Assembly (NCBI GenBank): GCA_964639965.1
Contig: CAZXGI010000005.1
Coordinates: forward strand, 314-64,313
Length of the DNA: 64,000 nt
Reading direction: 5' to 3'
Source of the DNA: an uncultured Rhodospirillaceae bacterium
Lineage (GTDB): Bacteria > Pseudomonadota > Alphaproteobacteria > Rhodospirillales > UBA2165
In this document: positions 6,638-54,011 of the stretch, piece by piece
Layout of the letters: every line of letters begins with the position of its first letter
How positions within the stretch are numbered: position 1 is the first letter of the stretch
Made by a program: the position numbers and the translations under genes
Notes under the pieces: model-generated
What the model was told of the DNA's origin: nothing
The model's input: only the letters and a program-made list of their open reading frames with translations
The model's database searches: none

Positions 6638-7795
6638 ATGAAGAAACTAATTATTGTGCTTTGCGTATCGCCAATTTTATTTTTTATTAGCAATAGAGAG
6701 GTGTTGGGTTTGCCTCCTTGTCCAGCACACATTAATCCTTCTCCTTCTCATTGGTCAGAGTGTTTTGGCACTTACACTTATGCAAATGGCAATAAATACG
6801 AAGGAGAATATCAGAATGGTAAACGAAATGGCCAGGGTACCTTCACATTCGCAGATGGGGAGAAATATGTTGGAGAATTTAAAGATGGTAATTATCACGG
6901 CAAAAGCATTTATACGTTCGCTAACGGTGACAAATATGTAGGACAATGGCAAGATGGTAAGTTTAATGGTCTTGGCACTTTTTTTTATTTAGCGGAGAAT
7001 GAGGTTAAAGGTGATAAGTATGTTGGCGAGTGGAAGGATGGTGAATTCTTTGGCCAAGGAAAATATTTTTATTTAGCTGCCAACGAGTTTAAAGGAGATG
7101 TTTATGTTGGTGAGATAAAAAATGGAAAGCCAAATGGACAGGGCATTTATACCTACAGCTCAAGGTCAAAGTTTGCTGGTGACTTATACAAAGGTGAGGT
7201 GGAGGATGGCAAACCCAATGGTCAGGGTATTTATACCTTTGCAAATGGGAAGAAATATGTTGGTGAATTTCGAAAAGGTAAGCAGACTGGACGTGGGGCA
7301 TATACGTTTTTTTCGCCATCACTATTTGCCGGAGATGTTTATGTTGGTGATGTTAAGGATGGAAAACCTAGTGGACAAGGGACGTATACCTGGGGTCCCT
7401 CTTCGGAATTTGTAGGTGATAGTTATACCGGAGAATGGAAGAATGGAAAAAAGAACGGACAAGGTATTTATACTTTTGCCGATGGAAGGATTCAGGAAGG
7501 AATTTGGGAAAATAACAGTTTCAAATATGCCCAAAAAACTAGGCGATCTAGGATTGTTCAGGAATCAATCGAGCAGTCAGCTGAAGTAAAGAAGGAAATA
7601 GAAGATCTCAAGAAATTACAGAAGAAAATGGCAGGATTAGAACGTTGGAATACACAAAACACTCAACGTATCAAAAATACAGAGCAGCAAAAAGAGCCTG
7701 TAGAAAATGAAAATACCAAGGTAGATCGTGATTCCCTTATATCTAAATTACAAGAGTGGTGGTCTTCTTTGTTTGGATCTAGCGATAAACCTTAG
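6638..7795 (+). CDS. secreted or anchored MORN-repeat protein with charged C-terminal tail
   Basis: 385 aa. N-terminal MKKLIIVLCVSPILFFIS hydrophobic segment, then 9-10 repeats of YxGExxxGKxNGQGxYTF. The C-terminal tail is Lys/Glu/Gln-rich and predicted helical. Confidence 0.8.
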   Translation: MKKLIIVLCVSPILFFISNREVLGLPPCPAHINPSPSHWSECFGTYTYANGNKYEGEYQNGKRNGQGTFTFADGEKYVGEFKDGNYHGKSIYTFANGDKYVGQWQDGKFNGLGTFFYLAENEVKGDKYVGEWKDGEFFGQGKYFYLAANEFKGDVYVGEIKNGKPNGQGIYTYSSRSKFAGDLYKGEVEDGKPNGQGIYTFANGKKYVGEFRKGKQTGRGAYTFFSPSLFAGDVYVGDVKDGKPSGQGTYTWGPSSEFVGDSYTGEWKNGKKNGQGIYTFADGRIQEGIWENNSFKYAQKTRRSRIVQESIEQSAEVKKEIEDLKKLQKKMAGLERWNTQNTQRIKNTEQQKEPVENENTKVDRDSLISKLQEWWSSLFGSSDKP

Positions 7796-7802
7796 GAGTT
7801 TT

Positions 7803-8654
7803 ATGAAAAAAGGTAAGTTCATATTTCTGGTAGTTTTATTCATTCTTATTTCGAGTGTTTCAACGAGTGAGCCCATTTCGTTTTCTAACTTAGAGGAACG
7901 AAATAATCTTTACTATAAAAAATCTTCCGATATACCATTTAGTGGACAAGTTAAAGGTATTAAAAATGGAAGAGTGTTTAACGGAAAAATTGTTGGTCTT
8001 TGGATAGCTTATTTGACGAATGGCAATTTGCGTTACAAAGCGAATTATAAAAATGGGAAACTTGATGGTCTATGGGAGTTTTATCACAAAAATGGTAGGC
8101 TGCATGAGGTAGGTAATTATAAGAATGGAAAAAAATATGGTGTTTGGTCCACTTATTTTAAAAATGGTCAATTAAGTTATAAGGCATCTTACAAAGAAGA
8201 CAGAGAGGACGGTCCTTTTAATTCTTATTCATCGGATGATGGCCGACTGCTATGGAAGGGTTTTTATAAGAATGGGAAAAGAGATGGGGTCTGGGAGTAT
8301 TACTACCAAAATGGACAGATAGAGATAAAGGATCATTATAAAGAAGGGAAAAAAGATGGTCCTTGGGAGTATTATTATCCGGGAGGGAAATTGCATTCGA
8401 AAGGTAGCTACTTAAATGGAAAAAAAGATGGAATTATGGAATGGTTTCACAGGAACGGTAAATTGAAAAGTATAGGAAGTTATAAAAAGGGGCGACGTGA
8501 AGGAGGGCTTTGGAAAACGTATAATATGAAAGGCCAGCTAAAAACTAAAGGCTACTATAAGAACGGAAAGAAAAATGGTCCTTGGGAGGTTTACGACGAG
8601 GACGGGCAGTTAGAACGACAAAGAAACTATATAAATGGTAAAGAAATTAAATAA
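7803..8654 (+). CDS. secreted MORN-variant (YwqK-type) repeat protein
   Basis: The ORF track starts at 7728, but the ATG at 7803 is preceded by AGGAG (7794-7798) and gives MKKGKFIFLVVLFILISSVSTSEP, a signal peptide. About 10 repeats of YKNGKKDGxWxxYYxNGxL follow. Confidence 0.8.
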   Translation: MKKGKFIFLVVLFILISSVSTSEPISFSNLEERNNLYYKKSSDIPFSGQVKGIKNGRVFNGKIVGLWIAYLTNGNLRYKANYKNGKLDGLWEFYHKNGRLHEVGNYKNGKKYGVWSTYFKNGQLSYKASYKEDREDGPFNSYSSDDGRLLWKGFYKNGKRDGVWEYYYQNGQIEIKDHYKEGKKDGPWEYYYPGGKLHSKGSYLNGKKDGIMEWFHRNGKLKSIGSYKKGRREGGLWKTYNMKGQLKTKGYYKNGKKNGPWEVYDEDGQLERQRNYINGKEIK

Positions 8655-8802
8655 ATTCAATTCTGATGCCAGCTGCTTGCCAGCGATATTTGGATGACCG
8701 TTAAAAAAATATAGAATAACTCATTGGTATTATTAAGATTATTTATTTCACTGCTGATTTAGAATATTGGAAATTATATAATATCCCGAATTTGCAGAGA
8801 TT

Positions 8803-11136
8803 TCAGGTGTCATTTTCTGTGGGTCTATGGCTGTCTGGTTTAGATGCTAATCGCAATACGAGTTCTTCTTCACGATCACGTAAAGCTAGGCGATAAGACT
8901 GTTCTTTACCTGTTTCGTAAGGTAAAGGCCATCTTTGATGGTCAATGCCGTAATATGCTGCAGCTTGCAGGGTAAAATGCGGATTTGTTAGATGAGGTCT
9001 TCCAATTGCTACTAGGTCCGCTCTTCCTGCTGCCAGTATTGTATTAGCTTGGTCCCAAGTTGTAATGTTGCCTGCAGTAATAGTTGGAATGTCTGCTTCT
9101 AACCGAACTTGTTCTGAGAATAAGACTTGGAACATACGCCCATAAATAGGTTTTGCATCTGGAGTTGTTTGTCCAGCTGAAACATTGATAATATCGCAAC
9201 CACGTGCCTTTAGAGCCTTGGCTATTTTGACAGCATCGTCTCCATTTATCCCGTCTTCACCGATCCAATCGGTTGCAGAGATTCTGACTGAAATAGGTTT
9301 TTCATCGGGCCACACCTTGCGGACAGCGTCAAGAATGCGCAGAGGAAACCGCATACGGTTATTCAGTGAACCTCCATATTTGTCTTTTCTATGGTTGCTG
9401 ATAGGCGTGACAAAACTTGACAGCAGATAACCGTGGGCCATATGTAGTTCGATCATGTCCGAACCTATTTGATTCGCCAATTTGGTTGCATATAAAAATT
9501 CAGATTCAACATCATCCATTTCACTTTCGGTCATTTCTAGAGGAATATTATTTTTAGCACTATATGGAATTGCTGAAGGTGCAATTAACTGCCAATTACC
9601 CTGTTTAAGGGGGAGATCCATCCCCTCCCATGCTACCCGCGTGGAACCCTTTCTCCCAGAGTGGCCAATTTGCATGCAAAATTTTGCATCTGAATTTTCA
9701 TGAATATAATTGATAATTTTAGCCCAGGCGTCCGAATGTTCCTCTTTATAGAGACCTGCACAGCCTGGTGTGATCCTGCCCGCTTCCGAGACACAAGTCA
9801 TTTCCGAAAAAATAATTCCCGCTCCACCCATCGCTAAACTTCCTAAGTGGACAAAATGGAAATCTCCGACCGTGCCTTCAATAGCTGAGTACATATCCAT
9901 AGGTGATACGACGATTCGATTGGAAATGGTCATTTCGCGGAGCTTAAAAGGTGTAAACATCGGTGGTGTACTTTTTGGAACAACAAATCCTTTCTCGCGC
10001 ATCTGATTTGAAAACCAATCTTCTATTTTTTCTATAAATTCGCTGTCGCGTAATCGAAGGTTTTCATGAGTTATTTGTTTTGATCGAGTTAACATTGAGT
10101 AGGCAGCTTGCAAAGGTTGTAAATCCCAATAACGGTTGGTGTTTTCGGTCCATGCAACACTAACATCTGCTGCATGTTGCGTGATTTCAACCTCAGTCCG
10201 CCTTATTACTTCAAATTTTTTTAGAGCTGTCTGGACATTATTTTCTGCAGAAAGGGATTTGTGTAAGGCAATAGCATCTTCCATTGCTAATTTGGTTCCC
10301 GACCCGATGGAGTAGTGTGCTGTGTGAAGTGCGTCTCCAATAAGAACAATGTTATTGAAACTCCAGTGGTCGCACCTTATCGTCGGAAAAGATCTCCAGA
10401 TTGATTTGTTTGGTATCAAGTTATGACCGTCGAGTTTATCTCCCCATAAGTCTTCCATATACTTGATTAAACGTTTTTCATTTAGATCTTCGACGTCAGG
10501 TTGGGCATTTTTCCATGTCGGTTCAGGGGCTTCGATAATCCAAGTTGCATAATTTTCATTAAATTGATAAGCACCTAATATCCAGATGCCGGCCTCATTT
10601 TCGGTGAAGTCAAATGTAAACGCCTGATATGGTTTTGTGCAGCCGAGCCAAATGAACTTGTTTCGGCGCCATTCAATATTTGGAATAAACTGGCCTTCAT
10701 TTAATTTTCGTATTTTGCTGTTTATGCCGTCAGCCCCGACGATTAAGTCAGCGTCTTGGAACTCCTCTAATTCTTTCACTTTGTAATTAAAATGGAGGTT
10801 AATGTCCAATTCTTGGCAACGTTCTTGCAGGATAAGCAATAATTCTCTGCGGCCACACCCACAAAATCCGTGTCCTTTAGTCCGGATTGTTTTTCCTTTA
10901 AAATTAAAATCGATTTCGTCCCAGTATGCGAACTCGTTAATAATTTTATGATATGTTTTTTCGTCTTGGGATAAAAAATTACCTAATGTTTCGTCAGAGA
11001 AAACGACGCCAAATCCAAAAATATCATCAAATTGGTTTTGTTCATAAACATCAATCGAGTATTCAGGATTTGTCTTTTTCATAAGTATAGAAAAATAGAG
11101 GCCAGCAGGACCAGCACCGACAACCGCAATTTTCAT
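8803..11136 (-). CDS. bifunctional FAD-dependent aromatic-ring monooxygenase fused to Old-Yellow-Enzyme-type NAD(P)H:flavin oxidoreductase (2-aminobenzoyl-CoA monooxygenase/reductase or salicylyl-CoA 5-hydroxylase-like)
   Basis: 777 aa. The N-terminus MKIAVVGAGPAGLYFS carries the FAD dinucleotide fold, with GADGINSKIR and LIGDALHTAHYSIGSGTKLAMEDA as hydroxylase motifs. The C-terminal half starts FTPFKLREMTISNRIVVSPM and contains HMAHGYLLSSF, typical of OYE TIM barrels. Confidence 0.8.
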   Translation of the reverse strand: MKIAVVGAGPAGLYFSILMKKTNPEYSIDVYEQNQFDDIFGFGVVFSDETLGNFLSQDEKTYHKIINEFAYWDEIDFNFKGKTIRTKGHGFCGCGRRELLLILQERCQELDINLHFNYKVKELEEFQDADLIVGADGINSKIRKLNEGQFIPNIEWRRNKFIWLGCTKPYQAFTFDFTENEAGIWILGAYQFNENYATWIIEAPEPTWKNAQPDVEDLNEKRLIKYMEDLWGDKLDGHNLIPNKSIWRSFPTIRCDHWSFNNIVLIGDALHTAHYSIGSGTKLAMEDAIALHKSLSAENNVQTALKKFEVIRRTEVEITQHAADVSVAWTENTNRYWDLQPLQAAYSMLTRSKQITHENLRLRDSEFIEKIEDWFSNQMREKGFVVPKSTPPMFTPFKLREMTISNRIVVSPMDMYSAIEGTVGDFHFVHLGSLAMGGAGIIFSEMTCVSEAGRITPGCAGLYKEEHSDAWAKIINYIHENSDAKFCMQIGHSGRKGSTRVAWEGMDLPLKQGNWQLIAPSAIPYSAKNNIPLEMTESEMDDVESEFLYATKLANQIGSDMIELHMAHGYLLSSFVTPISNHRKDKYGGSLNNRMRFPLRILDAVRKVWPDEKPISVRISATDWIGEDGINGDDAVKIAKALKARGCDIINVSAGQTTPDAKPIYGRMFQVLFSEQVRLEADIPTITAGNITTWDQANTILAAGRADLVAIGRPHLTNPHFTLQAAAYYGIDHQRWPLPYETGKEQSYRLALRDREEELVLRLASKPDSHRPTENDT

Positions 11137-11293
11137 GGGTTTACTCCTGGTATCAAGGGATTTATCTTATAACCAAGATATTCACATATTTATAATCAAA
11201 AATACAAACCTCGCTAGACTTTTATGGTGCTATAAATTTTTTTACAATCAAAATAATCAATATTCAAAAAATATTGCCTAAAGGGACGTCATA

Positions 11294-12592
11294 ATGACCG
11301 AGTTAATGCGCTTTCCAAGTTCCAGAGAAGAAATTCTATTAATCCAGAGGGAGCGCAAAAGGTTAGCGTTTGAAAGAGCTAAACAAGCTCCTTGGTATAG
11401 GAATAAGTTATCGGGTATAGATGTAAATAAATTAGATGATCCCGAGGTCTGGAGCCAAGTCCCGATACTGACTAAGGACATTCTTCGAAGGTTTGATCAT
11501 GATGAGTTTATTGAAAATTTTAATATTGCTCCTACGACAGATATCGCTGAATATTGGCGTTCCGGTGGTACCACGGGGAAGCCAGTTTTTTATCCTAGGA
11601 CGTTTGAGGATGTAAATTACGGACTAGAAAGTTGGGCCAGGACTTTTCCAGCTATTGGCATTGATTCACAAGATTTATGCCATATTTCATTTCCGTTGGG
11701 TATCCATCCAGCCGGGCAAATTTGGGCACGCAGTGCTCATCAGAAGAACGTGGGTATGAATTGGGTGGGTGCTGGAAATTCAGTGCCATCGGAGGCGCAA
11801 ATTGATTTAATACTTACCCTGAAACCCACGGTATTAATTTCAATGTCCAGCTTTGCGCTTCATCTTGCTAATATTGCCGACAATAATGGCATAGACCTTT
11901 CCAAAAGTTCGGTTCGAATTGTCATTTGCTCAGCAGAGACACTTTCGGACGCAAAAAGAGAAAAACTGGGACACCGCTGGGGGGCTGAAGTTTTTGACGT
12001 ATTTGGTATGAGTGAAGCGGGCCTGATGGGATGCGAAAGCAGTGAACATGATGGAATTCATATATGGTCTGACATGTATTATTGTGAAGTGATAGATGAG
12101 AAGTCCAGTAAAGTCCTGAATGAAGGAGAGACAGGAGCATTTTGTGTAACGCCGCTTTTTACTAATAATGCAACACCATTTTTGCGGTGGAACTCAGGAG
12201 ATATCGTTCAGATGATTGGTCGTGGTAAGAGTAAAGGTCGGATCGGCGACCTGTTCCCTATGATCCGGCATGCTGCACGTACAACCGGTTTTTTCAAGAT
12301 ACGTGGTGTTAATCTTAACCATACAGAGTTTGAGGATTTTATGTTTGGGAATGCGGAAATCAATGACTTTCAAGCAATTTTGGAGACCGGAGATGATGAT
12401 TTGGAATTAATCAGGGTTAAAATAGAGGTTAAAAGAGGTCTTGATGAAGAAAAAATTTCCAAACAGGTTGGATCAGAGATAAAAAAGGTATTTGAAGTAT
12501 CTCCAATAATTGATTTACAGAAGCCCGGCGAGCTTGCCAAACTCTTTGAAACCAGTATTAAAGCTCCTAGGTTTGTTGATGAAAGGAGATGA
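11294..12592 (+). CDS. PaaK-like (phenylacetate-CoA ligase family) adenylate-forming aryl/acyl-CoA ligase
   Basis: 432 aa. YWRSGGTTGKPVFYP is the P-loop-like AMP motif. FDVFGMSEAG is also present. The short length and C-terminal ACT-like tail are typical of PaaK/F390-synthetase relatives. Confidence 0.8.
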   Translation: MTELMRFPSSREEILLIQRERKRLAFERAKQAPWYRNKLSGIDVNKLDDPEVWSQVPILTKDILRRFDHDEFIENFNIAPTTDIAEYWRSGGTTGKPVFYPRTFEDVNYGLESWARTFPAIGIDSQDLCHISFPLGIHPAGQIWARSAHQKNVGMNWVGAGNSVPSEAQIDLILTLKPTVLISMSSFALHLANIADNNGIDLSKSSVRIVICSAETLSDAKREKLGHRWGAEVFDVFGMSEAGLMGCESSEHDGIHIWSDMYYCEVIDEKSSKVLNEGETGAFCVTPLFTNNATPFLRWNSGDIVQMIGRGKSKGRIGDLFPMIRHAARTTGFFKIRGVNLNHTEFEDFMFGNAEINDFQAILETGDDDLELIRVKIEVKRGLDEEKISKQVGSEIKKVFEVSPIIDLQKPGELAKLFETSIKAPRFVDERR

Positions 12593-12613
12593 TTCTAAGA
12601 ATTAACCACCAAA

Positions 12614-12829
12614 ATGCAGCATCAGAATTGTAAAATCTTGGAATTTGATGATTTGAAAAACCGAAGTGGAAGGCAGTTAATTTGTGAAGTTTGCCATACT
12701 AACTTTATGTGTGACAGCAATAGTGAGGTTGGTTGTTGGTGTATGACGATAGAACAAAAGGTAATTGATGAAAATTTAAAAGACTGTATCTGTGAGAATT
12801 GTCTCTCTAAAGCCGTTAATTGTAGATGA
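12614..12829 (+). CDS. cysteine-rich CWC-family small protein
   Basis: 71 aa. Pattern CEVC...C...GCWC...CICENC, with 9 Cys including the CWC signature. Confidence 0.6.
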   Translation: MQHQNCKILEFDDLKNRSGRQLICEVCHTNFMCDSNSEVGCWCMTIEQKVIDENLKDCICENCLSKAVNCR

Positions 12830-13295
12830 GTTAATAAATAATGAGAAATTCGAAAATAAATGGGTCAAGATATTGATAGATGAGTGGTTATATCAGGTAC
12901 GCATAAAGGTAAGCGAAGAGCTTTCCAATGTATTGAGGGCAGGAAAGCTAGAAGGTACATCTAAAGAAATATACAGGATAGCAAGCAAGTATGGTACTTT
13001 TCCCGTTTGTACTTACGACGCATTCTGTGACTATTGTGCAGAAGCAGAATCAAATGTGTTCGAAGAATATCCTCTATATGATTGGACGAAGAAAGTCATA
13101 GAAGATCCAGAAAAACGAAAAAAACATATTAAGTCTTTCGCCTTCTATACTGAAGATTCGCAGGTATATAAGGAAAAATTGGCAAGATCACTGCATAATA
13201 GCCTGTTACCCCTCCATGAAAAAAGTTTAATAGAGGACTTAACTCTTATAGACAGCAATCCAAAAAATAACCCCCAGCCCCCGAGAAAATTTTAG
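12792..13295 (+). CDS. hypothetical protein (no family recognised; start uncertain)
   Basis: 167-codon ORF with no in-frame ATG anywhere. The only candidate starts are GTG 12792, which overlaps the upstream gene by 38 nt, and TTG 12873. The charged, helical-looking sequence looks like real coding sequence. Confidence 0.45.
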   Translation: MRIVSLKPLIVDELINNEKFENKWVKILIDEWLYQVRIKVSEELSNVLRAGKLEGTSKEIYRIASKYGTFPVCTYDAFCDYCAEAESNVFEEYPLYDWTKKVIEDPEKRKKHIKSFAFYTEDSQVYKEKLARSLHNSLLPLHEKSLIEDLTLIDSNPKNNPQPPRKF

Positions 13296-13412
13296 CTTCG
13301 TTAATGTAGAAAAAATTCGAAATACTTGATTTAATTTTAATATTGCTAATCTAATTTAATTCTAGGGGATCCTTAGTGAAAAATTATTGCAGTTTATTAA
13401 TCGAAAAAAAAA

Positions 13413-14039
13413 TTAGCTAAGCGCTAACCAAATACCAACACCTATCATTAGGAGACCAGCAACACGATTTATTAATCGAGTATTGTTTTGTTTTTTCAGC
13501 ATCATTGCTAGTGCCTGTCCTCCAATTGCATATATCATCAAAGAAATAAATTCTATTATTAATATAATTATCAAAAGAGCTGACATTTGAGGTAAAAGGG
13601 TGACTTCGTAATTAATAAAAGCAGGTACTATCGCGATAAAGAATGCCCACCCTTTAGGATTGGCGACAGCTGTTATGAACCCTTGAACAGATAATTTGAT
13701 AAACTTAATTTCAAATGAGTGAGTTCCATCAAAATTTAATGCCAACGCCCCTCTGGAATTTATCATTTGATAACCTATAAAAACTAAATATATTCCTCCG
13801 CAATATTTGAATAGAAGAAGGGCGGCTGGGTATGACGAAATGATTGCTCCACCACCAATGACTGCTGTACCCGCTACAACCAAAACACCAATAAGTTCAC
13901 CTGCCATCATTTTCATTGTATTTCTGATTCCGATGGTGATGCCCATTGTTAAGGCGAGCGTCATACAGAGGCCAGGAGTTATAGATATGGCAAAAAAAAT
14001 GGGAATAAAATAGTATAAGAGCGAAAAGTCTATGGGCAT
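13413..14039 (-). CDS. LysE/RhtB-family amino-acid efflux permease
   Basis: 208 aa with about 6 TM segments. The N-terminus ...FAISITPGLCMTLAL... and the overall length fit the LysE translocator family. Confidence 0.75.
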   Translation of the reverse strand: MPIDFSLLYYFIPIFFAISITPGLCMTLALTMGITIGIRNTMKMMAGELIGVLVVAGTAVIGGGAIISSYPAALLLFKYCGGIYLVFIGYQMINSRGALALNFDGTHSFEIKFIKLSVQGFITAVANPKGWAFFIAIVPAFINYEVTLLPQMSALLIIILIIEFISLMIYAIGGQALAMMLKKQNNTRLINRVAGLLMIGVGIWLALS

Positions 14040-14330
14040 TTGTAATAATTAACGCTGTATAGTTTTAAACGTTTGTGCGAGGCTAATATAGAAATAACAC
14101 GGATTTTGATTCCGTTGTTGGCTAACATTGTAATTAACGTTGTACTCCAGTCAATAAAAGTACAGATAGGTAACAGTTTTTGTTATAATTTTTCCAATAT
14201 TTTAGTTCAAACTCCTCTCTTCCAGGTTGAAACTTTTAGGAAGATTTTTTTTCATCTAAGTGGTTTGGGATGTACCCATGCGCTTGACCCAACATAATCG
14301 GACGATTTCCCGTTTAAGCATCAACCGAGT

Positions 14331-15881
14331 TCATGCTGCTATTTCTGGAAAATTGATTTTGGCTGCATCAATAATAGCATTTGATGAAACTAATGTTGCT
14401 GCTCGAGCGAGATCTGAAGCAAGATAGCGATCATTTTGGATAGTTGCAATGTCAACACGTAAGCGTGCTAATACTGAATTTAATGGATTACTTGTTTTTA
14501 ATGGCGCCCTGAATTCAATACCCTGTGCCCCACAAATTAGTTCAACACCCAGAATATTATTTAGATTCTTTGTCATTCTCAGTAGGCGGCGTGCACCGTA
14601 AGCCGCCATTGATACATGGTCTTCTTGGTTTGCGCTGGTTGGGGTGCTATCTGTGACACACGGGTTGGCAAGGTGTTTGTTCTCGCTCATTAGAGCAGCA
14701 GCGGTAACTTCTGCCATCATCAATCCTGAATTCAAACCTGGTTCTGGTGTTAGAAATGGTGGAAGATTATGACTCAAAGTAGGATCCACCATTAATGCTA
14801 TACGGCGTTGAGAAATCGCACCAATTTCAGCGATGGCAAGTGCGATCATATCGGCAGCAAAGCCAACTGGTTCAGCATGAAAATTACCTCCAGAAACAAT
14901 GCGGTTGGATTTTGTTAATACAAGGGGATTATCAGTTGCTGCATTGGCTTCAATTTTCAAGGTAGTGGAAGCTTGACGCAGTACGTCCATAGCTGCACCT
15001 GTCACTTGTGGCTGGCAGCGAATGCAATAAGGATCCTGAACTCTAGTGTCTCCTTCTATATGGCTATCACGTATTTCAGATCCAGTTAGTAGAGCTCTAA
15101 TGCTACTAGCTGCTTCACACTGCCCACGATGACCACGTAAGGCGTGAATGTCTGGTTGTGTTGGTGCCGTAGACCCCATGATAGCATCGGTCGACATTGC
15201 TGATGTTATTAATGAGTTTTGCGCAGCATGCCAGGCTTCAAAAAGACCAGCTAGCGCAAAAGTAGTTGAAAACTGCGTACCGTTTATTAGAGCCAAGCCT
15301 TCCTTTGGCCCTAGAGTGATTGGGGATAATCCAGCTTTGGCCAAAGCATCAGCACTATGATAAATCTTACCATCGTATTCTGATTTCCCTTCTCCAATCA
15401 TGGCAGCAGTCATATGGGCCAATGGCGCTAAATCTCCCGAAGCACCAACTGATCCCTGTGCTGGAATTACGGGCATTACCCCTTTTTCCAACATCTGTTG
15501 GAGCAATTCTACGAGTTCCCAACGTACACCAGAAGCACCGCGTCCAAATGATATAAGTTTAAGCGTCATCATTAATCGAACAATACTATTTGGGACCGGG
15601 TCGCCTACCCCACAGCAATGGCTCAAGATTAAATTTTTCTGCAAGGTTTTTGAATCTGACGGATCAATTTTGATACTGGCTAGTTTTCCAAACCCAGTGT
15701 TGACACCATAAACTGGAACCTCACTATTGGCAGCAATATCAATCTGTTTGCAGGACTCTTCAATAGCCTTACGGCAATCAGGACTTAATCTTGTGGTATT
15801 TTCATTCCAGTAAATGTCACTCAACTGATTAAGTGAAACCTGCCCCGGATACAATGTCAATTCACCCAAATTTTCCTCCAA
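14331..15881 (-). CDS. hutH: histidine ammonia-lyase
   Basis: 516 aa. MIO-forming [15 protein letters not shown] (Ala-Ser-Gly), [11 protein letters not shown] (Ser-His selectivity pair typical of HAL, not PAL/TAL), [12 protein letters not shown]. The start is non-ATG: TTG at 15881, or TTG at 15869 after GGAGG. Confidence 0.9.
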
Positions 15882-15907
15882 AATTTCTTCTATTAAGAGA
15901 GTTAAAC

Positions 15908-16064
15908 CTAACTCCGTAAGATAGTTCTGCTGGATGTTCGATGTTCCAAATTTGTTAGATTGGGGCGTTCGTCAACCTTAATAGATCCAGTATCATCTAG
16001 GCCAAATTCTTGTGCAGCACTCTGTGTAACTGTAAGAGAGAATTTTTGTTGAATCAATCGGCTT
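15908..16064 (-). pseudogene. C-terminal remnant of an amidohydrolase, probably imidazolonepropionase (hutI-like), 5'-truncated
   Basis: My translation gives [51 protein letters not shown] ending 27 nt upstream of hutH. It resembles the amidohydrolase C-terminal pattern T.N.A.ALGL.D.GSL.VGK.ADL. A TAA closes the frame just upstream and no N-terminal part is present. Confidence 0.4.
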
Positions 16065-16454
16065 TATTTTCTGTAAAATTTTGACCTGTACTTTCACTCA
16101 ATAAAAATACTCATAAGCCATTTTTTTAAAATATTTGTATTTGGAATATTCACACCCGCTCAATGAATTATCGCACGTAACACACGGATATTGTTATATA
16201 ATTTTAACAGTGTGAAGTTACTTTGCAATTTAGGTTTGATTATTACCTCTTTCTCGCAACCTAACCATCTGAATTATCACTCCAACAATTTGATTTTTGG
16301 AGTAAACATGTCTGTTCAGACGACTTTCCCTCCTCTGGACAGCGCATGACTTATGTGAAATTATTTACCAAGGAATATTGGATCTAACTTGGTTTAGGCA
16401 AGAATCTCTATAGTATAATTTGAGTGACTATTACTATCAACGGGGTGTAGCACA

Positions 16455-17210
16455 ATGCTAGGTAGCGTAAATAAGGAAAAAAACTTGATTGGTAAAAAAA
16501 TTATATCAATTCGTGATAAGTGGCACACAAAGAATCACCCTTTATTTAAGGAATTGGCAAAAGGCAAACTGAAACTTAAAATCCTCGGCATTCATCAGGC
16601 GATGCATGCTAAATTTGTCGTTTTGGCGCTTGAGGCTTTTGGTCTTCTTTACAATAAAGGAGACTCGCAGATAAAAAAAATGTGCGTGGAAAACCTAGCT
16701 GAAGAAGAGGGAATAGTTGCACAAATTGCAGTTGGCGAAGAACCTCACGAACACATGCATATGATACACCAATTTTGTCTCGCTGCTGGTTTAAGTCAGA
16801 AAGAAATTGATACAACAGAAATGCTCCCAAGCTGGTGGGCTCGGACACTCTATTATAGATATATAGCAGATGTTGAACCAGTAGGGGTGGCCCTAGCTGC
16901 GTTGTTCACACAAGAGGGTCAACAACCTCAACTTAATAACGAAATTACGATACCCGCTCTTACTGCACATTATGGTTTTAATCGTGATGACCCAGCTATT
17001 GAGTTTTTTGTTGCACACGAGCTTGCAGATCAGGAACATTCAGAGAGACAGTTAGCGTTAGCTGTTGAAAATATTCACACCGAAGAAGAAGCCTCTCAAG
17101 CGCTAATTTGTGCCGAAAGAATCTGCCAATTACGCTGGGCCTCTGCATCAGAGATATATAATTTACATCATTTGGGTGAAGCAATACTTGCGCCCCCAGA
17201 ATTAACTTAA
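16455..17210 (+). CDS. heme-oxygenase-like diiron (iron-containing redox enzyme; PqqC/TenA/CADD-fold) protein
   Basis: 251 aa. N-terminal ...HPLFKELAKGKL..., ENLAEEEG...PHEHMHMIHQF (aa 80-107), FTQEGQ (E154), and FFVAHELADQEH = H-x3-D-x2-H (aa 188-195, nt 17016-17039). Confidence 0.65.
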   Translation: MLGSVNKEKNLIGKKIISIRDKWHTKNHPLFKELAKGKLKLKILGIHQAMHAKFVVLALEAFGLLYNKGDSQIKKMCVENLAEEEGIVAQIAVGEEPHEHMHMIHQFCLAAGLSQKEIDTTEMLPSWWARTLYYRYIADVEPVGVALAALFTQEGQQPQLNNEITIPALTAHYGFNRDDPAIEFFVAHELADQEHSERQLALAVENIHTEEEASQALICAERICQLRWASASEIYNLHHLGEAILAPPELT

Positions 17211-17367
17211 AAACAAAAAAACTGAGATACAACTAATAATATATCTTAATCACAAATTTCTTGTTCTTAAGTTTCAGTATTTCAGGGGTTTATAGATTAC
17301 TTTGGCGCTACTTTTAAGTTAGACGGTCAATATAACATGTTGACAATAAAAATATTATTTAACGGTC

Positions 17368-17380
17368 TCACTCCCACTCA
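17368..17380. repeat. exact 13-bp copy (TCACTCCCACTCA) of the guaA 3' terminus including its stop codon; candidate distal att site
   Basis: Identical in sequence and orientation to 20572-20584, which on the reverse strand reads GAG TGG GAG TGA (the last codons of guaA, ...EWE*). No gene ends at 17368. Confidence 0.6.
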
Positions 17381-17446
17381 TTAAAAATAACTCACTCCAT
17401 TTATAAGATTAATTTTTACACGCAACTCCCACATATAACCATAAAC

Positions 17447-18529
17447 TCACAAAATATTCTCTGCAATTTGTTTTGCAACCAAGTTATAACCTTTGTCTGA
17501 CAAATGGACGCGATCAACAAACAACCAGTCATTTTTATCCGGACTTGCAGCAAACAGCGCATTCATATCGTGAAATTCAATTTTATATTTTGCACATATT
17601 TCTCTTAGAGCGCCTGTAAACCATTGATAAATCTCAATATTCATAGAGTCGACATGAACACGCTTTGAGTTGCCAAGCTTGTGAATATATTCGAACAATT
17701 CCTGCTCTTCTTCCGTCTGTATACGGTCAATCCACGTCGCCAAAGGTTGCAAAATATAGACAAACCTGAACCCATCGTATTTTGCTAGGGCAGCCCATGT
17801 TCTGAAATTGTTCTCTATGGCGTGCAAGATAAGATCTTTTTGCGCAAAATGATCCTCGATCGTTTCTATGGCGACGGAAGGTTCCGGTAACATAGGAAGT
17901 CCACTCGGGTCATTTTTAAGTCGTCGACAAATAGCATTTACCAGACTGATTTTAGGTAAGTCGACATCTCCTTTACTCATGCCACGAAGGAAATAACGTT
18001 TCAATCGGTTGTAAAAAGTAGTATCGGGTATCACGCCCCTGAGTAAATGTGTCCAGTAATATACTCCTCCACCATATGACGGGTATTTTTTGTTAAAAAA
18101 GTAAAGAGCAAGATCATTTACACCGGAAAATAATATAACGTTCCGCACATTCTTGAATAGATGCCTATATGTATGATAACAAAGCAACTCTTGGGTACTA
18201 GAATATCCGCGGACACCTAGATTCCAACACGTTTGGCCAGTGTGCGACATTAAGCGCGAAGATATCGTATGATAATCGCTTGTGGCCCCACAACCCCAGG
18301 CAGTTGATCCACCCAATATAATATTACAGGGCAATGACGCATCTTTTGAAATTGTCAGCAATCTCCCTTCACCGGTATAGGAATGGCGAAAAGCGAACTC
18401 ATCGGTATTCAATACGTTGGAGCGCCATCGGGCAGCGTTGGTGAACGTCAAAGTCGGCAACCATTCAACCTTCATTGCATAATAGTCGAACAGTTGCGGA
18501 GCGTGCTTTTTTCGAGGGTCTTTAGCCAT
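17447..18529 (-). CDS. SGNH/GDSL-fold hydrolase family protein
   Basis: 360 aa. Block I variant IILGGSTAWG, block III FSGVNDL, block V DRVHLSDKGY (DxxH). Confidence 0.6.
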   Translation of the reverse strand: MAKDPRKKHAPQLFDYYAMKVEWLPTLTFTNAARWRSNVLNTDEFAFRHSYTGEGRLLTISKDASLPCNIILGGSTAWGCGATSDYHTISSRLMSHTGQTCWNLGVRGYSSTQELLCYHTYRHLFKNVRNVILFSGVNDLALYFFNKKYPSYGGGVYYWTHLLRGVIPDTTFYNRLKRYFLRGMSKGDVDLPKISLVNAICRRLKNDPSGLPMLPEPSVAIETIEDHFAQKDLILHAIENNFRTWAALAKYDGFRFVYILQPLATWIDRIQTEEEQELFEYIHKLGNSKRVHVDSMNIEIYQWFTGALREICAKYKIEFHDMNALFAASPDKNDWLFVDRVHLSDKGYNLVAKQIAENIL

Positions 18530-18771
18530 TTATAGGGCTTCCCGTATTTCTAAATTGATTTTATTTATCATGATTTATATTTATAAATAACATTTATTAA
18601 ATACGAGCAATTAAAGATTGAAAAAAGTGTTATTATTAGACCCTATGTAATATATGAAATATAATTAAACTTCTTTACTTGATCACCTTCAGCTGTATTT
18701 TAGTCTCTTTAAGAACTTTGAAAATAGTCAATCACAGCTAGTTATAACTTTAACAAGATTACTTTATAAAA

Positions 18772-19446
18772 TTAATCTTTTTTTATTCCCACACTCTCTA
18801 TCATGAGTTCACGGGTCCAGCGTAGAAACTTGTTTCTTGTTCGTACCGGCACAAAAAGAGCAATAATATCAAGTGGAATCTTTAAAAATGAATATTTCCA
18901 GGTTATAGGAAGCTGCCGAATGCGTTGGATTATGCCCGGTTTAAAACCACACATTAAATAAAGATTCCGAATCGTTTCAGTAGTAAAAGGCGTCTTATGC
19001 GTAGGATCGTCGAAAAATATTTTATAGTTAGATTCCCAATCAGGCACTAAGTTCAAAACCTTTCCATCAGGCTTTAGAACACGATAGCATTCGATTATTA
19101 ATTCTTCCGGGTTTGGCAAGTGTTCAAGAAAGCTCTTTGTATAGACTATGTCAAAACTATTATCTTCAAATGGAAGGGGTCCCTCAAACACATCATGGCA
19201 AACGAAGTTAATACCGATATTTTCGAGGTCTTTACGGAAGGTTTCATCTCGATCTAGCGCTGTAACATCAATATCCATAGAGTTAAATGATTTCGCTACT
19301 TCTCCACGCCCAGTACCAATTTCAAGCATCTTGCTCCCCGGATCGATTCCATGAAAAACCGTAAGCCTTTTTGCCAACAGATAAGGGTAATTGGTCAAAG
19401 GACGCTCTTGTGTGCTATATATTTTGGAAAGATAATTAATTCTCAT
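18772..19446 (-). CDS. class I SAM-dependent methyltransferase
   Basis: 224 aa. Motif I MLEIGTGRGEVA, an acidic residue after strand 2 (ALDRD), and FDIVYTKSFLEHLPNP. Confidence 0.8.
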   Translation of the reverse strand: MRINYLSKIYSTQERPLTNYPYLLAKRLTVFHGIDPGSKMLEIGTGRGEVAKSFNSMDIDVTALDRDETFRKDLENIGINFVCHDVFEGPLPFEDNSFDIVYTKSFLEHLPNPEELIIECYRVLKPDGKVLNLVPDWESNYKIFFDDPTHKTPFTTETIRNLYLMCGFKPGIIQRIRQLPITWKYSFLKIPLDIIALFVPVRTRNKFLRWTRELMIESVGIKKD

Positions 19447-19813
19447 GGCTTAACATTAATTCCTGGGTCGTTTTCTCAAGAACTTCAATAGCTTTCTTTA
19501 GGATACAAAAAACGCACACAGCTAGATAATTTTTTGCCTCTTTATCGTCAATTTTATCTCTTCATTTAGGTGATAAAGGATTTTTCTATTTTCGCTAATG
19601 TATTGCCACCCGTATCCGCTGTTTGCTTATCGTTGTATAACCCTTACTGCCATAACTTACAAAACATAATCCTTTTCTGCTAATATATGATTAGTTCATC
19701 TAAAGCGGTAATACTTTTATAGCGTTTCCCCTTTTTTATCAGGTTTATCTTAGTTTGAAAATACTTTGAAACTATGGAGGATTATAGCAAATCAATAGTT
19801 CTCCGATTATTCA

Positions 19814-20259
19814 TTAATAACCAATAAGTGAATTTATAAACCTTCCCGGCATAATAGCAAATATACCTGCTATAACTGTTCCTAACATCGTCCCTGCCAT
19901 GAAACCTGCATGCGTTCTGACATAACCTTTCTTGATATTTATAATAGCGATTCCCATATTAATTATTGTCCAAATAGTGAGTAGGTGAATCCAACTGAAG
20001 TCACCGTCATTTATTTCCCGTATCCAGAACGAGGGAACTGTCAAAAACTCATTATTATTAACTAAAACCATCCAACCATCCGATGTTGAGGTGTTCCTTT
20101 CTCTGAAACCAAATTTATCATACCAAGCATAATTGCCAAAACTGCTGCTATGAAATGAACCCAATTAAACATTTCAAATAGTATGAATTCTATAGTTATT
20201 GATATCAAACGATTATTCCCACTCACTAGTAACTCGGTCTCAAGATTCATGTATCTCAA
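19814..20259 (-). pseudogene. small multi-TM membrane protein gene disrupted by an 8-bp tandem duplication (possibly DUF2306-like)
   Basis: Two overlapping ORFs (20062-20259 and 19814-20164) in different frames. The junction carries AACCATCC twice in tandem (20066-20073 and 20074-20081). Deleting one unit gives a continuous ...EKGTPQHRMVLVNNNEFLTV... reading frame of about 146 aa. Confidence 0.6.
20066..20081. repeat. 8-bp perfect tandem duplication (AACCATCC x2) causing the frameshift
   Basis: Read directly from the sequence: 20061 actaaAACCATCCAACCATCCgatg. Confidence 0.9.
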
Positions 20260-20284
20260 AGACTTAGAACCACCTCAATAGCAC

Positions 20285-20304
20285 CGTGTAACTTTCGTGT
20301 AACT
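20285..20304. repeat. two direct copies of CGTGTAACT spaced 11 bp start-to-start; an inverted 8-bp copy lies at 20374-20381
   Basis: caccGTGTAACTttcGTGTAACTcactg at 20285-20304, and AGTTACAC at 20374-20381, overlapping the stop of the 51-codon ORF. Confidence 0.7.
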
Positions 20305-20375
20305 CACTGCCACGCGTTGCTGCTCACCACGATCTACCAATATTTATATAGATCAATGACCTAGCTGAACACTAG

Positions 20376-20531
20376 TTACACATCGCGCGGCGCTTGATTT
20401 TGGTTAGTCAGATTGAGTTCCAGAAGATCTGCCTCAATCTTCTTTACTCCACCAGTGTAATTCTTCATAGACTTTTCTGACAGATCGGTACTTAACTCCA
20501 TCCATTTCTTGAATTCGATTATATCATTCAT
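20376..20531 (-). pseudogene. 51-codon ORF resembling the N-terminal SAM-like/core-binding domain of a tyrosine recombinase; likely integrase stub
   Basis: Below the ORF-track cutoff. My translation: MNDIIEFKKWMELSTDLSEKSMKNYTGGVKKIEADLLELNLTNQNQAPRDV*. The pattern I-x-x-F-x-x-W...LS-x-x-S-x-x-x-Y-x-x-x-x-K-x-x-E parallels the XerD N-terminus in this window (IDIFIEMMAAERGAAINTLAAYSRDLKQFEVFM). The start lies 41 nt from the guaA stop. Confidence 0.35.
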
Positions 20532-20571
20532 AAAAATCTACCTAACATATTGATATTAAACGATAATTTAG

Positions 20572-22122
20572 TCACTCCCACTCAATCGTGCCAGGAGGTT
20601 TTGAAGTGATATCATAAACTACACGATTTATTCCTTTGACCTCATTAATAATACGGTTAGTAACACGGCCTAGAAAGTCCATGTCAAAATGGTAAAAATC
20701 TGCTGTCATTCCATCTGTTGAAGTAACCGCGCGTAAAGCACAGGCATAGTCGTAAGTTCGAGCATCTCCCATTACACCTACTGTTTGGACGGGAAGTAAA
20801 ATGGCAAAAGCCTGCCAAATTTCATTGTATAGACCGGCCTTTCGGATTTCATCAAGGTAGATTGAATCTGCACGCTGGAGAATTTTTATTTTTTCTCGTG
20901 TAACGCCTCCCGGTAGACGGATAGCAAGGCCTGGCCCCGGAAAAGGATGACGGGAGACAAATTTTTCTGGCAAATCTAGTTCCTCGCCTAATCTACGAAC
21001 CTCGTCTTTAAATAATTCTCGCAAAGGCTCTACTAATTCCATATCCATCCGATCAGGTAGACCACCAACATTATGGTGTGATTTTATGGTAACACTTGGT
21101 CCTCCATGGAATGAAACACTTTCGATCACATCTGGATAGAGCGTACCTTGTGCGAGGAATTTTGCTCCGCCTATCTTATTTGCTTCTTCTTCAAAAACAT
21201 CAATGAATGTTGATCCAATGATCTTTCGTTTTGTTTCTGGGTCAGATATCCCATTTAATTTGTCTATAAATAAATCACCAGCATCGCGATGGATTAATTG
21301 AATATTATAGTGATCTTTGAATAAACTAACAACTTCTGTAGCTTCGTTTAGTCGCATCATACCGGTGTCAACAAAGACACAAGTCAGTTGTGGACCAATA
21401 GCTTCGTGTAGCAAAATCGCAACGACAGAAGAATCAACACCTCCAGAAAGGCCACAGATAACCGTTTCATTACCTATTTGAGCACGAATATTTGCAATTT
21501 CCTGTTCTTTAAAAGCAGCCATCGACCATTTGCTTTCGCAGCCGGCAATCACGTTGGTAAAGTTCTTTAATAATGCGGATCCGTCAGGAGTATGGATAAC
21601 TTCAGGATGAAACTGAACAGCGTAAAATTTTTTCTTGTCGTCCGCTATTGCAGCATAAGGTGCGTTCTCAGAAGTGCCGACAACTTTGAAGCCATCAGGT
21701 AATACCTTTACCCGATCGCCGTGGCTCATCCATACTTGTTCTTTGTTACCAATAGTCCAAATGTCTTGAAACAAATTGCAATCAGAAATGATATTCAGTG
21801 TAGATCGACCAAATTCTCTCTCTCTTGAGTTCTCAACCGTACCGCCAAGTTGATCGACCATAGTTTGTTGTCCATAACAGATACCCAGTATAGGAAGGCC
21901 CATATCAAAGATTTCACGGGGTATTTGTGGAGTGTCAATTTCTGTGACTGAAGCTGGTCCACCGGAGAGTATAATCCCCTTTGGATTATACTCGATAATT
22001 CTTTGTTTGGTAATTTTATTGAAGGGGCGTACTTCAGAGTAAACACCACTTTCACGTACACGCCTAGCAATAAGCTGTGTGAGTTGCGAACCAAAATCAA
22101 TAATTAAAATTCGGTCTGACAT
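20572..22122 (-). CDS. guaA: GMP synthase (glutamine-hydrolysing)
   Basis: 516 aa. GATase domain with ILGICYGQQ, the ATP pyrophosphatase loop LSGGVDSS, and the canonical C-terminus KPPGTIEWE. Confidence 0.95.
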
Positions 22123-22246
22123 ATAACCTCTATTACCTTAGTGGGTTTCCAATTGGAAGAGAAATTAAATCTGGTCGAAAATATGATCCGATTATTCTAA
22201 TAAAATATATAATTCTAATTCAATTAAAGAGAATTCGAATTATTTC

Positions 22247-22831
22247 TTAATTCAAACCAAGTCTACCCGATTTCAACGCTGCTTCCAGATCAGGCCAGCC
22301 GTAGGCAATTTCTCGCACAACAGTGCCCCATAACTTTTCCTCGCGCTCACCAATTCGTTTGCCTTCCATAACTTCGTAAAAGAAACGTGATGGATTTAAG
22401 CTTAATACCCAAATAATTGCTCCAGTATACCCTTGGTCAATCAAGATTCTAAATAGACCTGCGAGCATTCTTTGTCCGTAGCCTTTGTTTTGGTAATCTG
22501 GATGAACATAAAGTGTATAAATTTCGCCCTCGAATGAACTTTTTCGATCTCTATTGAAGCCGCAGCTGCTTACACCAATAATTCCAGCTTTTTCATCTTC
22601 AATAACTAAGATTTTCTCTTCTGCAGGCCCACCAACGTGTTTGATCGCTCGAGCCCACATAACCATTTGACGTTCAGTTGACATTTCGACTAAAACTTTA
22701 TCTGGCAAAATCCCAGCGTAGGTTGACCGCCAGGTGTCAACATAGACATTGGCTATGGCTTCGGCGTCATTTTGTACAGCGGGTCGAATATTAGGTATTA
22801 GTTTTCTCCAACACAGCAGTGAAAAAGCCAT
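22247..22831 (-). CDS. GNAT-family N-acetyltransferase
   Basis: 194 aa. IRPAVQNDAEAIANVY and the acetyl-CoA motif A HPDYQNKGYGQRML. The ATG at 22831 overlaps the rsmB end by 41 nt, so the start is uncertain. Confidence 0.75.
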   Translation of the reverse strand: MAFSLLCWRKLIPNIRPAVQNDAEAIANVYVDTWRSTYAGILPDKVLVEMSTERQMVMWARAIKHVGGPAEEKILVIEDEKAGIIGVSSCGFNRDRKSSFEGEIYTLYVHPDYQNKGYGQRMLAGLFRILIDQGYTGAIIWVLSLNPSRFFYEVMEGKRIGEREEKLWGTVVREIAYGWPDLEAALKSGRLGLN

Positions 22832-51669: not shown

Positions 51670-51977
51670 CTCATTTTTTGCCGTTTTATATATAGTTTGC
51701 AGGTATTTTAATGCTAATTTTCCGAATTTGCCGAAATATTGCCATACTTTACCAATATCATTTATTTAATTTTAGTTTATTAGATGGTAAAAATTTCTTA
51801 ACTATATAGAAAAGTAGCTTGTTCAGCTATATGTTGAATAACGGAAGTTTACACTTATGAAAAATATCTCGCGTTTAGGGCTTTTATTATCTGCTATATT
51901 TATTATTGGAGCTATATTATTTTTGTCTAAATGGGAGATTCCAGCCCCAGTTATGGAAGTTGAAAAAGTTATATCAA

Positions 51978-53891: not shown

Positions 53892-54011
53892 TATTATCTA
53901 GATCAAAATGATAGGTTTACCGATTTCTGTTCTTTGAATTGAATAGCTTAGATTTACATAGAAGGTGCAGTCTATTTGATTTTAGTTATTAACAGTTAAC
54001 TATAATTGTTT

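Follow-up and report, generated by a model that had tools for sequence, protein, structure and literature searches.

A predicted heme-oxygenase-like diiron protein of an uncharacterised CADD-related subfamily, encoded in a species-variable slot of a marine Rhodospirillales genome

The Gene and Its Maintenance

Here, we describe a gene for a predicted heme-oxygenase-like diiron oxidase/oxygenase (HDO) from an uncultured marine member of the Rhodospirillales (~40% GC), together with the protein subfamily to which its product belongs and the genomic surroundings in which the subfamily occurs. The gene lies at positions 16455–17210 (+) of a stretch of 64,000 nucleotides from contig CAZXGI010000005.1 (assembly GCA_964639965.1), hereafter the window. 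Its open reading frame (ORF) opens with the ATG as its first codon and runs for 251 codons, exactly as listed in an initial annotation made from the sequence alone. From the ORF list, Pfam, AlphaFold2 (AF2) modelling, Foldseek and substitution rates, the 251-residue product is assigned as a PF14518 protein of an unnamed subfamily related to the Chlamydia protein CADD.

The gene, which has a GC content of 40.7%, is intact, maintained and under strong purifying selection. Comparison with an 84%-identical homologue in L014 gave a ratio of nonsynonymous to synonymous substitution rates (dN/dS) of ~0.04, with synonymous sites near saturation. Two independent marine metagenome assemblies encode an identical protein with the same neighbours, and all 46 residues that are invariant in the family alignment are present in the window protein. 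The start codon is credible because the N-terminus aligns with the N-termini of homologues.

Family Assignment and Predicted Fold

The protein matched the Pfam model PF14518 (Haem_oxygenas_2, described as "iron-containing redox enzyme") over residues 71–228, where its 46.6 bits exceed the gathering score of 28.9 (E = 4.4e-12). The TENA_THI-4 model scored 21.7 bits, below its gathering score of 22, and covered only the N-terminal half of the protein. In NCBIfam, TIGR04305 (the CADD family) was the sole match even at E ≤ 10, with 68.5 bits against a cutoff of 200, and neither a PqqC nor a TenA model was matched at that same permissive threshold. A placement in TenA or PqqC, against which the initial annotation had asked to be checked by profile models, is thus not what the models return, and no pqq genes adjoin the gene.

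Searching the PDB with phmmer matched three sequences named "4-aminobenzoate synthase" or CT610 (CADD), with E values of 5e-10 to 3e-9; with a family profile, these improved to 8e-17 and 1.3e-13. Chlamydia CADD (1RCW, 8VA9) and 9PJ4 were the only meaningful PDB sequence matches of the protein. The 9PJ4 entry, titled "4-aminobenzoate synthase," we take to be probably NePabS of N. europaea, since NePabS peptides match it except for one K/Q difference.

The AF2 model, for which an alignment of 32 relatives was used, was all-helical, with a mean predicted local distance difference test score (pLDDT) of 90.5 and a predicted template-modelling score (pTM) of 0.86. When this model was compared with the PDB by Foldseek, CADD chains occupied ranks 1–4, with template-modelling (TM) scores of 0.74–0.76 (query) and 0.86–0.89 (target) and root-mean-square deviations (rmsd) of 2.7–2.9 Å; the ranks below were taken by 3DDE (a protein of unknown function), PqqC, 4LQX, TenA homologues, UndA, BesC and PolF. 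The protein is therefore modelled as a seven-helix heme-oxygenase-like fold, and CADD is its closest solved relative by sequence and, in the model, by fold. The HDO-fold assignment of the initial annotation is borne out by the PF14518 score, the CADD matches in the PDB and the modelled structure. Of the superpositions that it had named, the one on CADD gave the best Foldseek match, whereas UndA was matched too but far more weakly.

Metal-Ligand Positions

The motifs quoted in the initial annotation were all located in the protein, and the alignments set each of them against ligand positions of CADD. The CADD ligands, in the numbering of 1RCW, are Glu81, His88, Glu142, His174, Asp178 and His181. 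AEEEG (residues 82–86; 16698–16712, +) places E84 at the Glu81 position, and HEHMHMIH (residues 98–105; 16746–16769, +) places H100 at the His88 position. FTQEGQ (residues 151–156; 16905–16922, +) contributes E154 at the position of Glu142, with Q153 replacing Tyr141, and VAHELADQEH (residues 186–195; 17010–17039, +) contributes H188, D192 and H195 at the positions of His174, Asp178 and His181. This last H-x3-D-x2-H segment matches that of CADD column for column, so that the spacing which the initial annotation had given for CADD is the one found. For this comparison, the aligned portions of CADD (residues 17–209) and 9PJ4 were rebuilt from HMMER output and joined to the family alignment.

All six residues are invariant in 32/32 relatives, and E83 is invariant alongside E84. 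In an alignment of 36 diverse CADD-related proteins, taken from a profile search that covered 1.84 billion representatives, conservation reached 90% or more in no columns but the start Met, P29, G37, G112, Q156, G174 and the six ligand residues. Most HDOs use a ligand set of three His and three carboxylates, known as 3H/3C (PMC13108848), and the aligned positions in the present protein match that typical set. Relative to CADD, the family carries a specific insertion of 12 residues after the first Glu ligand and ahead of the first His; it was modelled as a loop (residues 85–99), where the internal confidence of the model was lowest (mean pLDDT 69 for residues 81–90 and 60 for residues 91–100).

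Positions of the Sacrificed Tyrosine and Lysine

CADD is a self-sacrificing enzyme whose Tyr27 is cut out of the backbone to supply the ring of p-aminobenzoate (pABA), and its Y27F mutation abolishes pABA formation (PMC9522330). Lys152 of CADD is the amine donor, and Tyr25, Tyr41 and Lys159 of NePabS are essential (PMC11965152, PMC13108848). The aligned positions in the window protein are occupied otherwise. The helix-1 signature of the subfamily, WHTKNHPLF (residues 23–31; 16521–16547, +), ends in Phe31 at the Tyr27 position, which is Phe in 32/32 relatives, and the codon at 16947–16949 (+) encodes Thr165 at the position of Lys152, which is T, V, I or L in 32/32 relatives and never Lys. Most tyrosines of the CADD relay are likewise replaced: His51 stands at the Tyr47 position and Gln153 at the Tyr141 position (each conserved in 32/32 relatives). 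At the position of Tyr43 in the Chlamydia protein and Tyr41 in NePabS, the window protein has His47, and 21/32 relatives have Tyr. Within the 36-protein alignment, the carriers of both Tyr and Lys (P0218, P0221, P0222, P0228, P0230, P0236, CADD and 9PJ4) formed a separate, more distant group that is only 21–23% identical to the query.

Because the sacrificial Tyr and the donor Lys are both replaced, the defining features of a CADD-type pABA synthase fail in this protein. Nor did the surroundings point to folate: no folate genes were found among the recurrent neighbours in the 84 loci of relatives examined for context, no pab, fol or pqq genes among the window ORFs scanned, and no Rfam match at E ≤ 1 to tetrahydrofolate (THF), thiamine pyrophosphate (TPP) or other RNAs in 13000–21000. 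The vitamin-precursor option of the initial annotation, a CADD-type pABA synthase, is not supported, in view of the Tyr27-to-Phe and Lys152-to-Thr replacements and the TIGR04305 score (68.5 against 200), with no recurrent folate neighbours; it is unlikely that the protein patches folate synthesis.

Size, Spread and Signature of the Subfamily

A word-indexed protein search returned 205 relatives, of which 17 were 63–85% identical to the window protein, mostly from ENA/JGI metagenome assemblies, and a large set was 46–55% identical. Many of these carry the automatic JGI name "PqqC," and NCBI names them "iron-containing redox enzyme family protein." At the genome level, at least 413 genome stretches encode a relative in a collection with one genome per species (185,579 species), a few genomes having two. 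The best 80 of these 413, to which the taxonomic description applies, were all metagenome-assembled genomes (MAGs), mostly Alphaproteobacteria (Rhodospirillales/Rhodospirillaceae, Stellaceae, Defluviicoccus and Paracoccaceae) with a few other lineages. Two MAGs of the Terriglobia (Acidobacteriota), L017 and L019, encode copies 65–66% identical to the window protein, against 46–52% for most alphaproteobacterial copies, which argues for transfer of the gene across phyla. In three MAGs, two paralogues at distant positions are found in each (L042 and L058, L061 and L084, L043 and L088).

An exhaustive profile search found only 45 representatives at E ≤ 1e-30, beyond which a graded series of subfamilies extends down to the CADD-type group. 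By sequence comparison, the protein belongs to a compact, unnamed and uncharacterised subfamily nearest to CADD and NePabS. Its family-specific invariant or near-invariant residues are R20, W23, T25, H51, W127, W128, R130, T152, Q153, G155, R198, Q199, R227 and W228; R20, W23, W127, R130 and R227 are invariant, and W128 and R198 are conserved at 90% or more. The presence of Arg, His and Trp near the predicted dimetal site suggests a small polar or anionic, possibly aromatic, ligand. A search of the literature on PF14518/Haem_oxygenas_2 and on PqqC-like proteins in catabolic clusters found nothing on the subfamily or on such a protein.

A Species-Variable Slot Beside guaA

The gene sits in a species-variable slot (8803–20571) between a conserved pair of genes for 385 and 283 aa and guaA, defined by synteny with sibling MAGs. 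This stretch of ~11.8 kb has no counterpart in the siblings L096–L098, in which both flanks are syntenic, in agreement with the variable region proposed by the initial annotation. One flank in L096–L098 reads Ppx-FtsJ-IMPDH-RsmB-GNAT-GuaA, and the other consists of the 283/385-aa pair followed by an ABC transporter; between them lie ~3 kb, occupied by a gene for a PMT-family glycosyltransferase in L096 and L097 and by small ORFs in L098. In the window, the slot holds, in order, a salicylyl-CoA 5-hydroxylase-like gene, a PaaK-like ligase gene, a 167-aa ORF, a LysE exporter gene, hutH, the HDO gene, a GDSL-like gene, a methyltransferase gene and a small membrane ORF. GuaA itself (20572–22122) shares 99% identity with a protein from a MAG labelled "Pseudomonadota" at NCBI and ~85% with proteins of Rhodospirillales MAGs.

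The HDO gene is monocistronic, as had been claimed: hutH upstream is divergent (−) and the GDSL-like gene downstream is convergent (−). The spacers on either side are AT-rich, again as first described. The upstream one (15882–16454) measures 573 bp at 34.6% GC, is shared with divergent hutH and is presumed to be the promoter region of the HDO gene; the downstream one (17211–17446), ahead of the convergent GDSL-like gene, measures 236 bp at 28.4% GC (compared with 40.7% for the gene). Promoter-like sites in the upstream spacer did not exceed the shuffle expectation, and no terminator-like hairpin was found in the downstream spacer. When all neighbour ORFs of the relatives were searched by tblastn against the flanking spacers for a decayed partner gene, only chance-level matches resulted.

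Two details of the initial annotation fell away at this locus. The "hut truncation" is a full-length gene that passes TIGR01225, and no "att-like site" was found; a search for att-like or boundary repeats in 12500–22500 gave only short imperfect matches of 14–20 nt, as expected by chance. No tRNA was detected in the whole window and no integrase among the slot genes. With PADLOC, the HDO and GDSL-like proteins had no match and the methyltransferase gave only a generic methyltransferase-domain match, on which a reading of the slot as a defence system was rejected.

The remaining slot genes can be described briefly. A 777-aa fusion of FAD and old yellow enzyme (OYE) type (8803–11136, −) scored 1062 bits with NF006101 (bifunctional salicylyl-CoA 5-hydroxylase/oxidoreductase; cutoff 1078), and a PaaK-like aryl-CoA ligase gene (11294–12592, +) is divergent to it; the two may constitute a CoA-dependent aromatic-acid hydroxylation module. 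The hutH gene (14331–15881, −) encodes a full-length histidine ammonia-lyase (TIGR01225, 679.6 bits against 539) that adjoins the LysE-type exporter gene and is an orphan, without hutU, hutI or hutG beside it. The GDSL-like gene (17447–18529, −) encodes 360 aa; GDSL/SGNH hydrolase models cover no more than the final ~50 residues, and Pfam, NCBIfam and PADLOC assign the remainder to no family. The methyltransferase (18772–19446) was considered as an orthologue of the one that follows the HDO gene in locus L001, and was rejected as such (21% identity over 100 residues, E 0.009).

Outside the slot, two ORFs at 6638–7795 (+) and 7728–8654 (+) overlap by 68 nt and are conserved as a pair in the siblings (79% and 73% identity), with no family match except a weak LIC20035-adhesin similarity in the second. 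An Amidohydro_2 gene of ACMSD/LigW type (35426–36490, +) in the conserved part of the window was examined as a displaced partner of the HDO gene and rejected, since it is only 22–28% identical to the Amidohydro_2 proteins of the relatives and shares with them the superfamily only. At 49982–54959, a gene for a Xer-type tyrosine recombinase comes after aroB (dehydroquinate synthase) and aroK (shikimate kinase), a pair that shows the organism to have a shikimate pathway; chorismate is presumably made, because aroK and aroB are both present.

Gene Neighbourhoods of Relatives

Neighbours of the relatives were counted by clustering six-frame ORFs over the 84 loci, and adjacency was taken from Pfam hits to ORFs within 400 bp of the HDO gene, among the 61 loci having such an ORF; clusters 1 and 2 of the six-frame analysis merge some ORFs in overlapping frames and were both ignored. 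In these raw counts, Amidohydro_2 genes adjoin the HDO gene in 11/61 loci, lying on the same strand 44 nt downstream in six and 56–71 nt upstream in five. The large subunit of a xanthine-dehydrogenase-type Mo-hydroxylase, divergent, adjoins it in 8/61 and a convergent UbiD gene in 6/61, and an NAD_binding_2/DUF1932 dehydrogenase is adjacent in another count of 8/61, in closely related genomes whose HDO copies are at least 90% identical. Within 6 kb, GlnA-like genes (19/84), VanA-type Rieske oxygenases (13/84) and FAA-family hydrolases (12/84) recur, along with MFS transporters and isochorismatase-family hydrolases. Neither pqqA/B/D/E nor thiamine genes were present among the neighbours in the relatives' loci or among the window ORFs scanned.

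As a rule, Amidohydro_2 and UbiD enzymes (de)carboxylate aromatic acids non-oxidatively, so that their recurrence is a loose pointer to aromatic or heteroaromatic acid metabolism.

One recurring arrangement is a cluster conserved in soil and wastewater Alphaproteobacteria (L031, L043, L045, L056, L057 and L061, at ~7500–17000), annotated from the copy in L011. Here, the HDO and Amidohydro_2 genes lie on the same strand with a gap of 28–44 nt, beside the divergent gene for a Mo-hydroxylase large subunit (in all but L056, where none was detected), and are followed by FAA hydrolase, MFS transporter, GlnA-like, VanA-type Rieske oxygenase and MetE-like genes. The closest marine relatives have differing neighbours: isochorismatase and methyltransferase genes with an adjoining integrase, DUF899, an arginase-family gene with an amidohydrolase, glutamine synthetase, an arylsulfotransferase-like gene or a Mo-hydroxylase. 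In L001 (7281–9395) and also in L016, a same-strand trio of isochorismatase-family, HDO and SAM methyltransferase genes, with gaps of ~30 nt, is found close to the edge of an integrated element: genes for an integrase, AlpA and an S24 peptidase begin ~600 bp downstream of it, beyond a single small ORF on the opposite strand.

No synteny was found between the window locus and that of any relative. From this lack of synteny, the variable slot and the 65–66% identical copies in the Terriglobia, we take the HDO gene to be mobile, an accessory, horizontally moving gene outside any fixed operon.

Proposed Function and Alternatives

The explanation that we favour, with reasonable though far from complete confidence, is that the window encodes an orphan HDO near CADD, a dimetal enzyme that activates O2 and acts on a free small molecule. 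Of the two roles offered in the initial annotation, this leaves the new oxidative reaction as the candidate. The protein would bind two metal ions (Fe2, or Fe/Mn), and the reduced cluster would react with O2 to a peroxo-level intermediate, as in other HDOs. This intermediate would then oxidise a free small-molecule substrate rather than a side chain of the protein itself, with the substrate held by R20, W23, H51, W127, W128, R130, Q153, R198, R227 and W228. That the substrate belongs to the aromatic or heteroaromatic carboxylic acids, or is closely derived from one, is a more tentative proposal, which we regard as possible but rather doubtful; it derives from the aromatic-acid decarboxylases and catabolic genes that adjoin the relatives and from the salicylyl-CoA 5-hydroxylase-like and aryl-CoA-ligase-like genes of the slot.

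At its most specific, which we hold to be improbable, this proposal would make the subfamily the first HDO with a catabolic role, a CADD-like dimetal oxygenase that turns over repeatedly and has a new O2-dependent reaction on free aromatic or N-heteroaromatic carboxylates. Such a reaction could be a hydroxylation, an oxidative decarboxylation or the cleavage of a ring or side chain, and the enzyme would work alongside Amidohydro_2/UbiD decarboxylases and Mo-hydroxylases.

Several points weigh against the O2-activating enzyme proposed here. Metal binding and O2 reactivity are argued by analogy with other HDOs, the substrate is proposed from conserved residues and neighbouring genes, and we infer from aligned positions that a single dinuclear site is where the six side chains meet. 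In the window protein, 15 residues separate the first Glu from the first His, compared with 6 in CADD, and the loop between them has low model confidence, so that either H98 or H100 may be the ligand. The neighbourhoods show no fixed operon, the largest neighbour family occurring in 19/84 loci, and all counts are raw, with no background enrichment control, and come in part from related MAGs that are not independent. None of the recurrent neighbours of the relatives adjoins the window copy, which stands alone as a transcription unit. The characterised HDOs named in the literature consulted are all biosynthetic, making natural products or pABA for folate (PMC13108848 and others), so a catabolic role would be without precedent.

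Among the alternatives, the most serious is a biosynthetic tailoring HDO which, like UndA, BesC, SznF, HrmI, AetD or PolF, would act on an amino or fatty acid to give a secondary metabolite or an unusual building block. The isochorismatase-family and methyltransferase genes, or arginase-family and amidohydrolase genes, that flank some marine relatives are what such an enzyme might be expected to keep as company, as are the methyltransferase and GDSL-like genes of the window slot; however, no nonribosomal peptide synthetase (NRPS), polyketide synthase (PKS), ribosomally synthesized and post-translationally modified peptide (RiPP) genes or other recognisable biosynthetic cluster was found among the annotated neighbours in the window or the relatives. 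The window gene is monocistronic, its methyltransferase is not orthologous to the L001 neighbour (21% over 100 residues), and UndA, BesC and PolF are far weaker structural matches than CADD, so we hold this role to be improbable, if worth keeping in mind. Much less probable is a self-sacrificing pABA synthase of CADD/NePabS type that would feed folate synthesis in a genome without pabABC. CADD and NePabS are indeed the nearest characterised relatives by sequence and fold, and they share with the window protein the six metal-ligand positions and the H-x3-H-P-F motif of helix 1, but the Tyr27 position is Phe in 32/32 relatives and thus equals the dead Y27F mutant, the amine-donor position is never Lys, Tyr47 is His in 32/32, and the equivalent of the essential Tyr41 of NePabS is His47. 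The TIGR04305 score is also far under its cutoff (68.5 bits against 200), genuine CADD-type sequences with Tyr and Lys are only 21–23% identical to the query, folate genes do not recur in the neighbourhoods, no riboswitch was found in the region scanned, and three MAGs each carry two copies of the family.

Two further possibilities we consider very improbable, and slightly more so than a pABA synthase. A new type of self-sacrificing or radical-transfer enzyme, modifying another protein-derived residue or a partner protein, would suit a clade nearest to CADD whose stand-alone, context-independent distribution resembles that of a self-contained enzyme, and the invariant aromatics W23, F31, W127, F184, F185, Y173 and W228 could form a path for hole hopping; yet Phe, His and Gln stand where the CADD relay has its redox-active tyrosines, evidence of any modification is nil, and the invariant Arg and His point to a small polar molecule as the bound ligand. 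A metal-free member of the TenA/PqqC branch, that is, a thiaminase II or hydroxymethylpyrimidine (HMP) salvage enzyme or a pyrroloquinoline quinone (PQQ) synthase, is what the JGI pipelines imply in calling many relatives "PqqC," and the TENA_THI-4 score lies just under its cutoff (21.7 against 22 bits) while PqqC and TenA structures were matched at TM 0.63–0.78. The complete and invariant set of three His and three carboxylates, however, marks the metal-binding branch. NCBIfam returned neither a PqqC nor a TenA model at E ≤ 10, the neighbours in the window and the relatives include neither pqqA/B/D/E nor thiamine genes, no TPP riboswitch was found in 13000–21000, and both sequence and fold place CADD well ahead of PqqC and TenA.

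Significance

Reactions are known for only some dozen of the more than 10,000 HDOs, and deorphanisation has been named as the bottleneck (PMC13108848). What was already known here comprises the superfamily, the fold, the ligand motif and the generic database labels of the relatives; what is new is a fairly widespread and uncharacterised subfamily that two positions separate from the pABA synthases. The subfamily is the well-populated clade that lies nearest to the unusual suicide enzymes CADD and NePabS; because it keeps the cluster ligands and has lost both sacrificed residues, it is a natural comparison for studying how a catalytic HDO becomes a single-turnover one. It is also a reasonable target for deorphanisation. 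Should the catabolic reading hold, it would show how the self-sacrificing tyrosine chemistry of CADD relates to catalysis on a free phenolic substrate. A CADD-like match in a marine genome is in itself no evidence for non-canonical synthesis of a folate precursor unless the Tyr/Lys pair is present, and the same caution applies to the automatic "PqqC" names of many relatives. For the organism, the gene is a single accessory gene in a variable slot beside guaA. The gene is unlikely to surprise a specialist and opens no long-standing question.

Comparison with Known Systems

Several families share the fold. PqqC and TenA do so at TM 0.63–0.78, with the weak N-terminal TENA_THI-4 similarity and the automatic "PqqC" names of relatives as further points of likeness; they are metal-free, whereas the subfamily retains the full ligand set. 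Next after CADD, in the profile search (E 4e-4 and 6e-3) as well as in Foldseek (E ~2e-6 to 1e-5), come Sden_3740 (3DDE) and SSO2700 (4LQX), structural-genomics proteins of unknown function that share the fold at ~16% identity and add no functional information.

The HDOs that turn over a free substrate (UndA, BesC, SznF, HrmI/BelK, AetD, SktA, RohS, FlcE, PolF and MboA) have PF14518 and the fold in common with the window protein, and most use a 3H/3C dimetal site; O2 activation on a free small molecule is also what is proposed here as a working model. UndA, BesC and PolF are nevertheless remote from it (Foldseek E 2.5e-5 to 3e-4, 10–15% identity), and none of these HDOs was matched by PDB sequence search. 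They moreover belong to biosynthetic clusters and have amino or fatty acids as substrates, contexts which the subfamily lacks.

CtCADD (CT610; 1RCW, 8VA9) and NePabS are closest. They are only 19–23% identical to the window protein, and CADD differs in that its Tyr27 is replaced by Phe, Lys152 by Thr, Tyr47 by His and Tyr141 by Gln; CADD Tyr170 is also Phe here, as it is in NePabS. The window protein further has, after its first Glu ligand and ahead of its first His, the 12-residue insertion that CADD lacks, and R20, W23, W127, R130 and R227 are invariant in its subfamily only. It also lies far below the TIGR04305 cutoff of the CADD family, and the folate-gene context was not found. At the same time, CADD and NePabS share with it, in the model, the seven-helix heme-oxygenase-like bundle, and they are its best matches by profile (E 8e-17 and 1.3e-13) and by structure (TM 0.76/0.89, rmsd 2.7 Å). 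Both also have the H-x3-H-P-F motif in helix 1 and the same 3His/3carboxylate positions, including H-x3-D-x2-H.

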